Counted from the stretch's first letter, positions 18,719-23,057 are shown. The stretch is DNA of 64,000 bases from Parcubacteria group bacterium Gr01-1014_13 (GCA_007376295.1 VMGB01000003.1:71106-135105), one strand, 5' to 3'. Numbers and translations: made by a program. The notes: generated by a model from the letters alone, not told the origin.

Positions 18719-19920
18719 GGCGATCAAGACAGCCAGTTTATCGTCTTTTCAGACACCACGGACATCGTCTTGATCGCCTAGAAAAAGGGCCGGTGAGAGA
18801 CATCAATTAGATCGTTCCGAAGAACGGCAGGCATATCGTCTCTCACCTGCAAAAAAGGTGGTGGGTGGGACAGTAAAGCATTCGTCTTTCAGACACTGTG
18901 TGTATCGTCTCACCCACCGAAAAAGATGTGGCTGACAGAATTCGTATCGTTTCAATTAAAAAACATCGTAACGATCGTCAGCCACAAAAAGGGTAGAGGG
19001 TGCATTCAAGTTTTCGTTCCAATTAAGGAACACGCTCGCGCTCGCACCCTCTTCAAAAAATTCAACGAATTAAACTTTTTGAAAAGGGGCCGGTGAGGGA
19101 CACTCGCGCTATCGTTCCAAAGAACACCGCACTGCTCATCTCTCACCGGCTAAAAAATTATGGCTGACACCTCCTCTTTCGTCTTAATCAAGAGACACCT
19201 TATGAGACATCAGCCACAAAAATGGTAGAGGATGCAATTAATGAATCGTTCCAATTAAAGAACATTGATTCGAGCGCACCCTCTCCAGAATTTATTTATA
19301 TAAAAATACGCTCTGGAAAAGGTGGTGAGTGGGACAGCATAAGTATCGTCTTTCCAGACAATGGAGTACACGTCCCACTCACCGAAAAGGATGTGGCTGA
19401 CATTAGCTGTATCGTCCCAATTAAGAGACAAGAACACAGTCGTCAGCCACAAAAGGTTGAGGATGCACACCTATATCGTTCCAATTAAGGAACACTGACA
19501 CTCTCGCACCCTCTTCAAAATCACTTTATTTTTTTAAAGTAACTTTGAAAAGGTAGCGAACGAGACATCACCTACTACGTCTTTATAGACAACGCTCATG
19601 TCGTCTCGTTCGCCGAAAATAGGAACCGGTGAGGGACATTGCTGTGGTCGTTCCGAAGAACAAAAGATCGCATCGTCTCTCGCCGGCTAAAAAAGATGTG
19701 GTTGACACCTCTCCTTTCGTCTCAATTAAGAGACGGGAAACATGTCGTCAGCCACAAAAGGGAGAGGGTACAAGACGCCAATCGTTCTAATTAAAGAACA
19801 AAGCCTGCTTCGCACCCTCTTCAAAATCACTTTATTTTTTAAAGTAACTTTGAAAAGGGCCGGTGATAGACAGCGAGTCACTCGTTCCGAAGAACAGGTG
19901 GGTTCTCGTCTCTCACCGGC
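18719..19920. repeat. tandem array 1 of 16 modular nested-hairpin units (types E,A,B,C,D,A,C,D,B,C,D,E,A,C,D,A), 58-64 nt each, with A-rich linkers
   Basis: Each unit is an outer stem (A: GGCCGGTGAGAGAC/GTCTCTCACCGGC; B: GGTGGGTGGGAC/GTCTCACCCACC; C: ATGTGGCTGAC/GTCAGCCAC; D: GGTAGAGGGTGC/GCACCCTCT; E: GGCGATCAAGAC/GTCTTGATCGCC) around a conserved inner palindrome (GTTCCGAAGAAC, GTCTTTCAGAC, GTCTCAATTAAGAGAC, GTTCCAATTAAGGAAC). Two non-conserved 8-12 nt segments flank the inner hairpin. Unit coordinates: E1 18719-18778, A1 18787-18850, B1 18857-18919, C1 18926-18985, D1 18991-19053, A2 19087-19150, C2 19160-19217, D2 19224-19284, B2 19321-19384, C3 19391-19450, D3 19456-19514, E2 19556-19614, A3 19624-19687, C4 19696-19755, D4 19760-19820, A4 19858-19920. 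Confidence 0.85.
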
Positions 19921-21414
19921 TAAAAATTTAAAGAGCTAACTATTGAGCAGATTGCTCGCCTGCAGTCTCGACCTGTTCGGTCTGCTGCTTCTTGGCTTGC
20001 CGCTTCTGTTTGGCCGCAAAATGCTTGTCTCGTTCCCTTTCCAACTTGACCTGTTTGAGCTGTTGGGCATACTCGGGATTAGACTCGAGACGTGTCCACT
20101 GCTTCCACAACCACTGGGTGAACTTGGTGGCCGTACGCCACAAAGCCATCTTGTGGATGTGGCCGTCGGTGTAACGCTTCTTGCCCTCCACCTCCACCAC
20201 TTCCGGATGCTTCTCTCGCAACCGAGCCTTGATCTCGCGCAATTTCTTGCCCCAGACCGAATCGGCTCGACGGTTGAACTGGTCCACCAACAGGTACAGA
20301 GCTTGACGCCCATCTTCCTGCCAGTTGGCCACTTCTCCGGCGCGCCGACGAACAAACTGCTTGTTCGTGGGTCGGTCGCCATACTTGCCTCCATTCATCA
20401 CATGCACACCGAGATAAGCTTTGAGCTTGGCATCGGTGGCAAAACGACGAATATCGCCGATGGCCACAATGAGCCGTGCCGCGATAGCTGGGCCAACACC
20501 TTCGATGGGCTCGAACAGCTCTTCGTAGATATTGATCTGACCGAGAATCTTGGCGAGATTTTTGTCTCGCTCTTTTTCTTCGGCCACATAACCGGCGAGG
20601 ATCTTGTCGTTGGACTTGGCCTGCTCGTAGAGGACCTCGATTGTACCTTGGGGGTACTGACCCTCTTCGGAGCAAAAGACAAGCCCCACCAGATTCTGGC
20701 GAATCCTCTGCTCGCAACCCATACGAGCCTTCATGGCGTCCATGCGATCACGGTACGCCTGACCCAGCTGGATGAGAGAGCGCTCGCGACGATTCACGAG
20801 ATAGAAATCGCTCTGCGAGTCACACACGAGTTGGGCCAACAGATCGGCATCGTCTTCCTTCTCCTTATCCAGAGTCTCTCGCCATTCCTTCAAGGCGAAA
20901 GACGGCAAACGATACACCGAAGCGCCGACTTTTTCGCCACGCTTTGAAAGCGCAAAGGCGAATCGGTCGCCGGATCCGCCGAGCACCATGCCCACCACGT
21001 CGCCGGACTGTAGTCCGTCGTACGCAGCTGGCACTTTGTCGAGCACCATGCAGATCTTGCCGTCCATACGGCGCCGGTTCTCGGGAATCTCTTCGACGCG
21101 CTCGTCCTTCTTGGCCTTGCGCCACTTGATGTGGTTGGGCTTGAAGGTGGCGATATCGTCGCTATCTTCCACCGCGCGGAATTGCGTGGGGAAAATACCA
21201 TGCACGAAGTCCAATTCGGACATTTCGTCCTCGAGTTCATACTCGGTGACGTTTTTGTCTTCACCGATGATACACACCCGCGTTGGACGCGCTTCACCTG
21301 CTGCGGTCTTCTTCCTGCGATGCTGAATTCCGATATGACGCATTTTCTGACTCCTTGGCTTTCGCCGTTTGAGTTTCGTCCGTTAGCATTATTGCTAGCA
21401 GACATTGATTGTAA
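19921..21414 (-). mobile_element. putative IS110-like insertion sequence (about 1.5 kb) sitting between array units A4 and D5
   Basis: A compositionally foreign GC-rich block with no hairpin units inside. Its size is typical of IS110 elements. No terminal IRs were seen, consistent with the IS110 family. The boundaries are approximate. Confidence 0.45.
19940..21343 (-). CDS. IS110-family-like DEDD recombinase/transposase (RuvC-like N-domain plus Tnp/HhH C-domain), with about 25-aa N-terminal and about 100-aa K/R/Q-rich C-terminal extensions
   Basis: 467 aa. The Tnp-domain signature IEGVGPAIAARLIVAIGDIRRFATDAKLKAYLGV matches IS110 Transposase_20 (IPGIGxxTAAxLLAEIGDxxRFxSxxQLAAYAGL). Candidate DEDD tetrad by analogy to IS621: D in CIIGEDKN (compare YIGIDTAK), D in ICMVLDKVPAAY (compare ICIEATGTY), and DD in KEDDADLLAQL (compare KTDTVDARMLA). 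Good SD (AAGGAG) 8 nt upstream of the ATG. GC is about 55% against about 40% background. Confidence 0.75.
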   Translation of the reverse strand: MRHIGIQHRRKKTAAGEARPTRVCIIGEDKNVTEYELEDEMSELDFVHGIFPTQFRAVEDSDDIATFKPNHIKWRKAKKDERVEEIPENRRRMDGKICMVLDKVPAAYDGLQSGDVVGMVLGGSGDRFAFALSKRGEKVGASVYRLPSFALKEWRETLDKEKEDDADLLAQLVCDSQSDFYLVNRRERSLIQLGQAYRDRMDAMKARMGCEQRIRQNLVGLVFCSEEGQYPQGTIEVLYEQAKSNDKILAGYVAEEKERDKNLAKILGQINIYEELFEPIEGVGPAIAARLIVAIGDIRRFATDAKLKAYLGVHVMNGGKYGDRPTNKQFVRRRAGEVANWQEDGRQALYLLVDQFNRRADSVWGKKLREIKARLREKHPEVVEVEGKKRYTDGHIHKMALWRTATKFTQWLWKQWTRLESNPEYAQQLKQVKLERERDKHFAAKQKRQAKKQQTEQVETAGEQSAQ

Positions 21415-23057
21415 AGTAGAAGGTACAATCACGCTCTCGTTCCAATAAAGGAACACAAACTTATTCGCACCCTCTTTGCAAAATACCAAATTTGATAATC
21501 TGCAAAGAGGGAGGGTGCATGCGGACAAACGTTCCAATTAAGGAACACTGCAGACAGCGCACCCTCGAAAAAAGGAGCCGGTGAAAAACATTTCTCCTCT
21601 TCGTTCCGAAGAACAAATCACGAATCGTCTCTCACCGGCAAAAAAGTGTGACTGACAAATCACCAATCGTCTCAAATTAAGAAACACGGTCCGCTTCGTC
21701 AGCCACAAAAAGGGGTAGAGGAATGCAATCCTTTCTTCGTTCCAATAAAGGAACACGGGTCGTTTCGCACCCTCTCTAAAATTTTCGTGGTATAAAAACT
21801 TTAGAGAGGTGGCGATCAAGACATGGCGTTACTCGCTGTTTCCAACATGCAGAGTTTCGTCTTGATCGCCTAAAGAGTGGCCGGTGAGACACGGGCATTA
21901 TCGTTCTGAAAGAACACGAGCAACGGCGTCTCACCGGCTAAAAGGATGTGGCTGACAATTCAAGTATCGTCTCAATTAAGAAACACTTCTTCGATCGTCA
22001 GCCACAAAAAGGATAAAGGGTACAATGTGCTGATCGTTCCAATTAAGGAACACCCGATGTGTCGCACCCTCTCTAAAATTTTCATGGGTTATAAAAACTT
22101 TAAAGAGGTGGCGATCAAGACATGGCGTTACTCGCTGTTTCCAACATGCAGAGTTTCGTCTTGATCGCCTAGAAAAGGGCCGGTGAGAGACAACGGTGAA
22201 CTCGTTCCGAAGAACACGTCCCGTTTCGTCTCTCACCGGCTAAAAAGATGTGGCTGACATTCTTTCATTCGTCTCAATCAAGAGACACTCATCGTATCGT
22301 CAGCCACAAAAGGTTGAGGGCACATGAAATTTTCGTTCCACTTAAGGAACAGCTTGCTCAACGCACCCTCTCTAAAATTTTCATGATTAATAAAAACTTT
22401 AGAGAAGTGGCGGGTGGGACATGGAGATACTCGTCTTTTCAGACAGCGCGAAGTTCATCCCATCCGCCGAAAAAGATGTGGCTGACAAAATCCTTCTCGT
22501 CTCAATTAAGAAACACGAACTAGATCGTCAGCCACAAAAGTTTGAGGGCACACACCTATCTCGTTCCAATTAAGAAACACTGGTACTCTCGCACCCTCTT
22601 CAAAATTTCCACATTGTCATCTCGAGCCGTGTCGAGAGATCCCTTTCGTCTGGTGTAAGGGATTCCTCCACTTCGGTCGGAATGACAGTTGGATACTTTG
22701 AAAAGGGGCCGGTGAGAGACACGGTAACTATCGTTCCGAAGAACACTCGCGAAATAGTCTCTCGCCGGCAAAAAAGATGTGGATGACAAAGTCTTTCTCG
22801 TCTCAATAAAGAAACAGTACGTTGGTCGTCAGCCACAAAAAGGTAGAGGGTACAGCAAGGAAATCGTTCCAACTAAGGAACACGGCGCCATTCGCACCCT
22901 CTTTACAAGCCTTCAAAAGGCCTCTAAACAAAGCACGAATAACGCCCAATTATAGCATAAATTTTAAGTATTGTCAATGGGTAACCCTAAATAAAAAGGC
23001 GATCAAGACATATCTCCACACGTCCTTTCGGACAAGGGGGAATTTCGTCTGATCGCC
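21415..23057. repeat. tandem array 2 of 20 modular nested-hairpin units (D,D,A,C,D,E,A,C,D,E,A,C,D,B,C,D,A,C,D,E), with AT-rich palindromic TATAAA elements after D units
   Basis: Unit coordinates: D5 21415-21475, D6 21509-21567, A5 21575-21639, C5 21646-21706, D7 21712-21776, E3 21809-21870, A6 21877-21937, C6 21946-22005, D8 22011-22073, E4 22108-22169, A7 22177-22240, C7 22248-22308, D9 22312-22372, B3 22407-22469, C8 22476-22535, D10 22540-22600, A8 22706-22769, C9 22776-22836, D11 22842-22902, E5 22998-23057. E3 and E4 are identical. Confidence 0.85.

Follow-up and report, generated by a model that had tools for sequence, protein, structure and literature searches.

The window analyzed here comprises 64,000 nucleotides (nt) of the genome of Parcubacteria group bacterium Gr01-1014_13 (GCA_007376295.1 VMGB01000003.1:71106-135105), a bacterium of the candidate phyla radiation (CPR; Patescibacteria). 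In the region 18719-23057, hairpin units of about 56-62 nt follow one another, separated by linkers that are A-rich in plus-strand reading, and an open reading frame (ORF) lies mid-region. This ORF (19940-21343, minus strand) encodes a protein of 467 amino acids (aa), which is annotated as a hypothetical protein in this organism (100% identity). It was assigned to TasR, a protein of the TIGR-Tas systems, using NCBIfam, the PDB, Foldseek and an AlphaFold2 model, and the gene is referred to as tasR in the following.

Architecture and strand of the hairpin array

A covariance model with a nested structure (R1) was built from 18 clear units, which were parsed and aligned by hand. Scanning the window with R1 resulted in 36 matches (E ≤ 0.01), all of them on the minus strand and within positions 18721-23055. 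In the rest of the window, two fragmentary matches (E > 0.1) were the only ones found. The gene tasR is located between units 20 and 21. Upstream of it, 19 stem-loop units (units 2-20; 21417-22903, minus strand) with R1 scores of 26-68 bits and the stem order D-C-A-(E/B) form a first sub-array. The downstream sub-array (18721-19917, minus strand) contains 16 stem-loop units (units 21-36), identified from the R1 matches and the parse, and ends in a U-rich tract after the last unit, followed by the promoter of the rnpB gene.

Read on the minus strand, the 5′ part of a unit begins with the lower stem (8-13 bp, with C as its last base), to which GA, a spacer of nine variable bases (N9), U and the G that opens the upper hairpin are joined. 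In the 3′ part the hairpin closes in C, followed by GA, N9, U, the G that opens the 3′ half of the stem, and a tail. Lower stems of 8-13 bp were found in 33 of the 36 units, and the upper hairpin between the two spacers has 4-5 bp. Its loop is UUCG in A-type units, GAAA or a related sequence in B/E-type units and UUAAUU in C/D-type units. The triplet C-G-A on the 5′ side of the spacers (box C) is present in 27 (first) and 32 (second) of 36 units, and the dinucleotide U-G on the 3′ side (box D) in 34 and 36, respectively. The C of box C and the G of box D on the opposite loop strand form the helix-closing pairs. The consensus of the 3′ tail was determined to be N-C-C/U-U-U-U, with C at position +2 in 26 of 36 units and U at positions +4 to +7 in 27-33 of 36.

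A spacer length of 9 nt was observed for the first spacer in 34 and for the second in 32 of the 36 units. The mean pairwise identity of the spacers was 26-28%, compared with 25% predicted by base composition. Within a unit, the spacers are not mutually complementary, since 38% of their positions could pair and about 37.5% are expected by chance when G.U pairs are included.

The outer stems fall into five classes, which recur on the minus strand in the cycle D-C-A-(E or B). Most D units are preceded by an AT-rich linker of 34-41 nt. Unit 1 (23000-23055, minus strand), upstream of the array promoter, is an outlying, degenerate E-type unit with an interrupted outer stem and CGT as its second box C; of all R1 matches it scores lowest (19.4 bits, E 0.0025). 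Units 4 and 5 are separated by 110 nt (22601-22710, minus strand) compared to the usual gap of about 38 nt. This long gap contains two additional hairpins, CCCTT...AAGGG and TCTCGA...TCGAGA, within a TGTCAT...ATGACA stem, as well as a CGA-N9 segment, and may represent a decayed or variant unit not recognized by R1.

In the R1 alignment, 94.1% of the pair cells hold standard pairs, whereas the value was 69.0% after shuffling of columns and 34-47% when the partners were slid by 1-3 columns. Double-sided changes were counted in 139 cells versus 46.5 in the shuffles, and none of 500 shuffles reached this number. These statistics refer to an alignment that was itself fitted to the model. The covariation is not an artefact of a single consensus, because one and the same helix is formed by different sequences in the five stem classes. 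No family for the array units was found by the Rfam search.

Several observations identify the minus strand as the RNA-sense strand. Across the units, the number of G.U pairs is 40 for the minus strand, compared with 11 for the plus strand. The minus strand forms the more stable fold in 31 of 36 units (mean -27.8 versus -22.5 kcal/mol), and the stable UUCG and GNRA loops occur on this strand only. At related loci, R1 scored the units with 40-66 bits when they were read on the gene strand, compared with 10-17 bits for the opposite one.

A consensus sigma-70-type promoter (TTGACA, 17 nt spacer, TATAAT, with TG) is predicted at 22949-22977 on the minus strand, where it would drive transcription into the upstream sub-array (12/12 in the promoter scan). 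A second, promoter-like site (TTTACA, 16 nt spacer, AATAAT; 10/12 in the scan) is located upstream of tasR at 21388-21415 on the minus strand and may act as a promoter of this gene. Direct reading of the sequence shows a ribosome binding site, AAGGAG, 7 nt before the ATG of tasR.

The array had been described in a first-pass annotation, and much of this description could be confirmed: about 36 units at 18719-23057, the nested stem and hairpin structure, for which compensatory changes had been predicted, and five outer-stem types in a recurring cycle. For the internal segments, given there as 8-12 nt, the variability was reproduced and the bounds are sharper, as CGA and UG delimit spacers of mostly 9 nt. 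The linker, given there as A-rich (AAAAAG), is CUUUUU in the RNA sense, which is that of the minus strand. A known Rfam family, for which a scan had been proposed, did not emerge.

The TasR protein and its association with the array in other genomes

The protein scored 137.8 bits against the NCBIfam equivalog model NF052498 (TIGR_Tas_endo; cut-off 100, E 4.7e-40), and the match covers profile positions 3-215 of 215. The scores for the NCBIfam IS110 models were below the cut-offs, with 51.2 bits for NF033542 (cut-off 140) and 34.2 bits for NF051857 (cut-off 180). In Pfam, Transposase_20 was found with 30.6 bits (cut-off 21.3) and DEDD_Tnp_IS110 with 18.5 bits, which is below the cut-off of 29. 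The sequence search of the PDB resulted in a sole match, 9MTY_A (1.1e-11), a chain of the entry that shows TIGR-TasR bound to tigRNA and DNA. When 68 family members were combined into a profile, 9MTY was matched with 3e-21 and IS621 with 0.009.

For the AlphaFold2 model of TasR, a mean pLDDT (predicted local distance difference test) of 93.4 and a pTM (predicted template modeling score) of 0.85 were obtained. Foldseek ranked 9MTY first (7e-12), followed by IS621 and ISCro4 (1e-7 to 1e-5) and then by TasH entries. Nop5 and proteins of box C/D ribonucleoproteins (RNPs) were weakly matched (E 0.02-0.1). Judged by these profile and fold matches, the 467-aa protein belongs to the Tas family as a TasR. 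The first-pass annotation had named it an IS110-like recombinase. This is explained by Pfam, which gives Transposase_20 and the sub-threshold DEDD_Tnp_IS110 only; the identification was not upheld, as the protein passes TIGR_Tas_endo, fails both IS110 models and lacks the first acidic residue and the serine.

TasR is composed of a degenerate RuvC domain with an insertion of about 80 aa, a coiled coil and a Nop-like C-terminal RNA-binding domain. The insertion lies between strand 3 (residues 32-37) and strand 4 (residues 116-120) of the AlphaFold2 model. The first RuvC aspartate is expected at the end of strand 1, in residues 3-7. Neither D nor E is found in residues 1-16 (MRHIGIQHRRKKTAAG), which include the sequence GIQHR, and the family consensus in the first catalytic region is G-I-R/Q-H-R. 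Motif comparison places L121 at the position of the second catalytic E of IS110, and the stretch aligned to the serine-nucleophile motif of IS621 ('...YESGSS...') contains no serine. The RuvC-like domain hence appears to lack the first catalytic acidic residue and, by motif comparison, the second. In CsTasR, R8 and V126 occupy the first two catalytic positions and an insertion of about 80 aa is located between strands 3 and 4 (Xu et al., 2026; 10.64898/2026.09.09.750476). Q7 and L121 are probably the equivalents of these two residues.

In total, 775 relatives of the protein were found; those with a named source belong to CPR lineages. Most of the relatives were observed on a single contig. Nine homologue loci with 49-80% identity were fetched. 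At the locus with 80% identity (L001), 37 R1 units surround the gene, of which 20 are located upstream and 17 downstream. At L002, L005 and L007-L010, R1 units likewise flank the gene on at least one side. A further scan with one genome per species covered 80 more loci and resulted in 367 R1 matches (E ≤ 0.01); among the matches listed, 300 of 300 were on the gene strand and clustered around the gene. Homologues with adjoining R1-type units on the gene strand (41-80% identity) were found in Magasanikbacteria, Wolfebacteria, Uhrbacteria, Adlerbacteria, Falkowbacteria and other lineages, and the genes neighboring L005 and L007-L010 are unrelated housekeeping genes. The gene and the array are thus associated across 89 loci, which supports the functional tie between the array and the protein inside it that had been suggested in the first-pass annotation along with the search of related genomes by a covariance model. 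Among the 80 loci is contig rifcsphigho2_02_scaffold_15087 of Buchananbacteria (L038, 46% identity), used by Faure et al. (2025; PMC12045711) to exemplify a TasR whose RuvC is inactivated.

The array size in this lineage ranges between 2 and about 37 units. At L003 (58% TasR identity), one tigRNA unit is present on each side (5812-5868 and 7317-7372), with CUA as box C and not CGA. A strict regular-expression scanner reported 16 units in the window, 20 in L001 and at most 9 in each of the 80 surveyed loci; since it undercounts (16 of 36 in the window), these counts are relative only.

Arrays on both sides of tasR were observed at L001, L005, L007-L010 and many of the 80 further loci. At L001-L004 the flanking genes are those of the window, with 3HCDH or Bac_transf upstream and rnpB and 2-Hacid_dh downstream, and the syntenic position of the gene is kept in relatives at 58-80% identity. 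The window contains one copy of tasR. The earlier description of an array split by a gene is correct as to the position between units 20 and 21, but the both-sided arrays and the synteny identify this as the native layout and not as an insertion.

Interpretation as a stem-loop TIGR-Tas locus

TIGR arrays and Tas proteins were defined by Faure et al. (2025), who reported a common architecture of box C, spacer and box D for the stem-loop units of TIGR, the bridge-RNA loops of IS110 and box C/D RNAs. The resemblance of the units to a dual-guide loop of an IS110 bridge RNA, pointed out in the first-pass annotation, agrees with this. In published stem-loop tigRNAs, boxes C and D flank spacers of 8-12 nt. 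A large CPR clade of TasR with an expanded and catalytically dead RuvC was described by Xu et al. (2026). In this clade, the two spacers of a tigRNA are separated by an additional hairpin (5 bp in CsTasR), a conserved CUU at the base of the stem indicates the processing boundaries, and the arrays are located up- and downstream of tasR. The authors report that transcription was repressed under RNA guidance and without cleavage; the two CPR-type TasR proteins they assayed, PateTasR and CsTasR, were catalytically dead and acted as repressors (Xu et al., 2026).

Since all sequence-level features of the CPR TasR clade are present here, the locus is considered a member of this clade, that is, a stem-loop type TIGR-Tas locus with a CPR-specific TasR (probability about 0.88). 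The closest likeness is to CsTasR from Candidatus Staskawiczbacteria, which was compared by its published description. Both have a CPR host, an expanded RuvC without catalytic residues and an insertion of about 80 aa between strands 3 and 4, and arrays upstream and downstream of tasR. The tigRNAs of both have a long lower stem, two spacers of about 9-10 nt, a hairpin of 4-5 bp and a CUU-type motif at the stem base, which is matched here by the 3′ flank consensus N-C-C/U-U-U-U. The protein is shorter than CsTasR (467 versus 547 aa). Box C is CGA, while CUU/UG is given for PateTasR in the preprint. The array with its 36 units differs from the average of about 7 units per array that follows from the TIGRFinder totals of 17,756 tigRNAs and 2,559 stem-loop arrays (Xu et al., 2026), and it is built of a repeating four-unit block with distinct stem classes.

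The best match of the protein in sequence and fold is TaTasR (9MTY), a protein of the dual-repeat type (Faure et al., 2025). The guide principle of box C, 9-nt spacer and box D, twice per guide, is the same, as are a protein dimer per guide and spacers that read opposite DNA strands. However, the tigRNAs of TaTasR are 36 nt long and have short edge and loop repeats without long stems, and TaTasR itself (331 aa) has an active RuvC (D11) without the insertion.

By homology to CsTasR and PateTasR, the following mode of action can be proposed. The minus strand would be transcribed, probably from the promoter at 22977-22949, and tasR may also have its own promoter. The transcript would be a string of 35-36 hairpin units, each representing one tigRNA. 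In each unit, the lower stem and the small upper hairpin would hold open an internal loop of 12 x 12 nt, each strand of which carries box C, a 9-nt spacer and box D. The units are probably separated by an RNase in the N-C-C/U-U-U-U linker at the stem base. A TasR dimer would bind one tigRNA (2:1 complex), whose two spacers would pair with opposite strands in adjacent halves of an 18-bp DNA site. Because the RuvC apparently lacks catalytic acidic residues, the complex is expected to bind DNA without cutting it and would be an RNA-guided DNA binder or a transcriptional repressor. Its probable role is thus to bind DNA under RNA guidance and to repress.

Four points weigh against this reading. The transcription and processing of this particular array are predicted by homology. 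The assignment of an inactive RuvC is based on residues 1-16 and on a motif-level comparison, not on a residue-level structural superposition. The NCBIfam name contains the word 'endonuclease', so that the family match alone is compatible with cleavage. Finally, no paired-spacer DNA target above chance could be identified in the 59.6 kb that the window contains besides the array. For this search, the 36 spacer pairs were used as rc(A)+B and B+rc(A), where rc denotes the reverse complement, with gaps of 0-3 nt and up to 3 mismatches on both strands. The two arrangements gave 1 and 4 matches at three mismatches and one match at two mismatches, and shuffled spacers gave 1.35 and 1.75. Matches of the spacer pairs to host DNA, as envisaged in the first-pass annotation, thus did not exceed the chance level there. 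By a rough estimate, exact matches of 17-18-mers in phage or metagenome collections are expected by chance. Many false-positive target matches due to short spacers have also been described (Xu et al., 2026).

The name of the NCBIfam model ('RNA-guided endonuclease') and the fact that the closest solved structure, TaTasR (9MTY), is an active nuclease would both fit a TIGR-TasR that cuts DNA in defence or in competition of mobile elements instead of repressing transcription. This is nevertheless improbable, as acidic residues are missing from residues 1-16, where the family has G-I-R/Q-H-R as its consensus, and PateTasR and CsTasR are dead repressors, with R8 and V126 of CsTasR corresponding to Q7 and L121. 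Programmable recombination, in which each unit would be a bridge-RNA-like loop guiding an active IS110-type recombinase, is suggested by the unit shape, which is that of one bridge-RNA loop, and by the architecture of RuvC, coiled coil and RNA-binding domain that the protein has in common with IS621. Like IS110/IS621 (8WT6, 8WT9), it has the domain order RuvC-like, coiled coil, RNA-binding domain, a guide with the shape of an internal loop and a Pfam Transposase_20 match. The protein lacks, however, the serine nucleophile and the catalytic DEDD residues, and the family profile fits TasR about 10^18-fold better than IS621. Bridge RNAs need paired target and donor loops, and IS110 has one two-loop bridge RNA, whereas the units here are many independent tandem single loops, none of which matches the gene flanks; the gene is single-copy and in a syntenic location. 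We regard programmable recombination as very improbable.

An IS110-family insertion sequence that landed in a passive cluster of palindromes similar to repetitive extragenic palindromes (REPs) or bacterial interspersed mosaic elements (BIMEs) had been the conservative alternative of the first-pass annotation. It would account for the Transposase_20 score above the cut-off (30.6 versus 21.3 bits), for the secondary fold match to IS621 and for units that are palindromic and tandem. It is contradicted by the NCBIfam IS110 scores far below the cut-offs, by the missing acidic residue at the first catalytic position, by the missing serine at the nucleophile motif and by the synteny of the gene in relatives at 58-80% identity. 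Moreover, hairpin units accompany the gene on its own strand and among unrelated neighbors in 89 loci, and the G.U asymmetry and the invariant CGA/UG boxes indicate an RNA and not a DNA palindrome. This explanation is largely refuted and can hardly be maintained. An equally low probability is given to a bacterial box C/D-like system guiding RNA modification. Such a system would agree with the weak fold matches to Nop5 and box C/D RNP proteins (E 0.02-0.1) and with the dual 9-nt guides and their flanking boxes. The likeness to archaeal box C/D sRNAs and Nop5 extends to two guides of about 9-12 nt bounded by boxes, the order stem, guide, loop, guide, stem, and a Nop-related protein domain. Yet the units have no K-turn motifs (RUGAUGA or CUGA boxes), no fibrillarin or L7Ae gene is located beside the locus, and the protein fits Tas far better than Nop5. 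In addition, DNA and not RNA has been published as the target of Tas proteins.

Further candidates were rejected on their defining features. REP/BIME elements are DNA palindromes dispersed over many intergenic regions, often with alternating orientation, and are accompanied by a RAYT transposase encoded elsewhere, whereas the 36 units are found at one locus in one orientation and nowhere else in the 64 kb. Mobility of an IS110 transposase was dismissed in view of the single copy in the window and the identical set of flanking genes at L001-L004. CRISPR-Cas loci have direct repeats of 25-36 nt, spacers of 30-40 nt and cas genes; here, the spacers are paired and 9 nt long, five stem classes are present, and no cas domains were found in the neighboring ORFs that were scanned. 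An archaeal H/ACA or C/D guide was dropped, as the units have neither an ACA box nor K-turn boxes and the organism is a bacterium. The array was thus correctly distinguished from CRISPR in the first-pass annotation, which had also doubted a pure REP/BIME cluster.

The suggestion made there of a new kind of programmable system does not apply. TIGR-Tas systems, which bind DNA under RNA guidance, were published in 2025, their CPR stem-loop TasR clade was described in the 2026 preprint, and a curated NCBI model already names the protein, so that no discovery of principle was made here. The guide-array logic of this class of systems could nevertheless be recovered by a reader from the sequence alone. 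The value of the locus as a specimen is modest. It belongs to the chromosome of a CPR bacterium, is non-viral and lies on a long contig (182,724 bp). Its unusually large array of 36 guides and the syntenic relative make it suited to a target search in the host genome and to the study of spacer turnover, and both natural targets and spacer turnover are listed as open questions in the 2025 and 2026 papers.

Spacer turnover and neighboring genes

Within a stem class, the identity was found to be 84% for the stems, 90% for the inner hairpins and 67% for the 3′ linkers, compared to 27.7% for the spacers. Between neighboring duplicated blocks, 81-93% of the non-spacer positions are identical, including the inter-block linkers of 36-41 nt, for which no constraint is apparent. 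The aligned spacer positions of these blocks show 35-57% identity, values that are inflated by the aligner. In a manual position-by-position count for the D, C and A units of blocks 8-10 and 12-14, 11 of 53 spacer positions were identical, which is the random level. The E units 11 and 15 (21813-21868 and 22112-22167, minus strand) of the same blocks of about 300 nt are identical, including both spacers (18/18). This combination of identical E units with unrelated D, C and A spacers is not expected from uniform drift after duplication. It is evidence of a recent block duplication with subsequent selective replacement of spacers. Tentatively, the locus may record how the array grows, namely by duplication of a four-unit block (D-C-A-E/B) of about 300 nt followed by a wholesale exchange of spacer pairs and not by drift, although we consider this somewhat doubtful. 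The growth and re-arming of stem-loop TIGR arrays are listed as open by the field.

L001 and the window (80% TasR identity) have the array scaffold in common, but mostly not the spacers. Only two exact spacers, GAGTACCAG and GTACTCCAT, occur in both arrays, with a chance expectation of about 0.015. Units 5 and 26 of the window (22542-22600 and 19457-19515, minus strand) contain the related spacer pairs GAGTACCAG/GATAGGTG and GAGTGTCAG/TATAGGTG. The counterparts of the conserved spacers in L001 are located at 5448-5506 and 2669-2725. The conserved spacers could belong to guides whose target is conserved.

The last tigRNA unit is directly followed, in the same orientation, by the RNase P RNA gene rnpB (bacterial type A; 18290-18663, minus strand), whose Rfam score of 100.9 bits is just above the gathering score of 100. 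Its promoter (TTGACA, 17 nt spacer, TAATAT; 18698-18670, minus strand) was predicted by the promoter scan and ends 7 nt before the 5′ end predicted by Rfam. The adjacency of rnpB and the array recurs in L001 (94.2 bits), L002 (77.7 bits), L003 (94.6 bits) and L004. It is absent from 86 other loci, which were searched at Rfam gathering scores (L005 and L006), by Rfam E-value (L007-L010) or with nhmmer (all others). Since L001-L004 share the whole gene neighborhood and the 86 other loci lack the adjacency, it is treated as synteny of this lineage, and a conserved functional link, such as RNase P as the processing enzyme, was rejected. For CsTasR, the processing of tigRNAs was sharpened by 2.2 kb of downstream flank (Xu et al., 2026).

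An ORF of 605 aa adjoins rnpB (16429-18246, plus strand). It matched no significant Pfam family and showed weak coiled-coil (SMC/Rad50-like) matches in NCBIfam. The ORF is absent from the syntenic locus L001 and is probably unrelated to the TIGR system. Two tRNA genes were also found in the window, namely tRNA-Ile with the anticodon UAU (1804-1877, plus strand) and tRNA-Arg with the anticodon GCG (42424-42496, minus strand), both of which are uncommon anticodon choices in bacteria.

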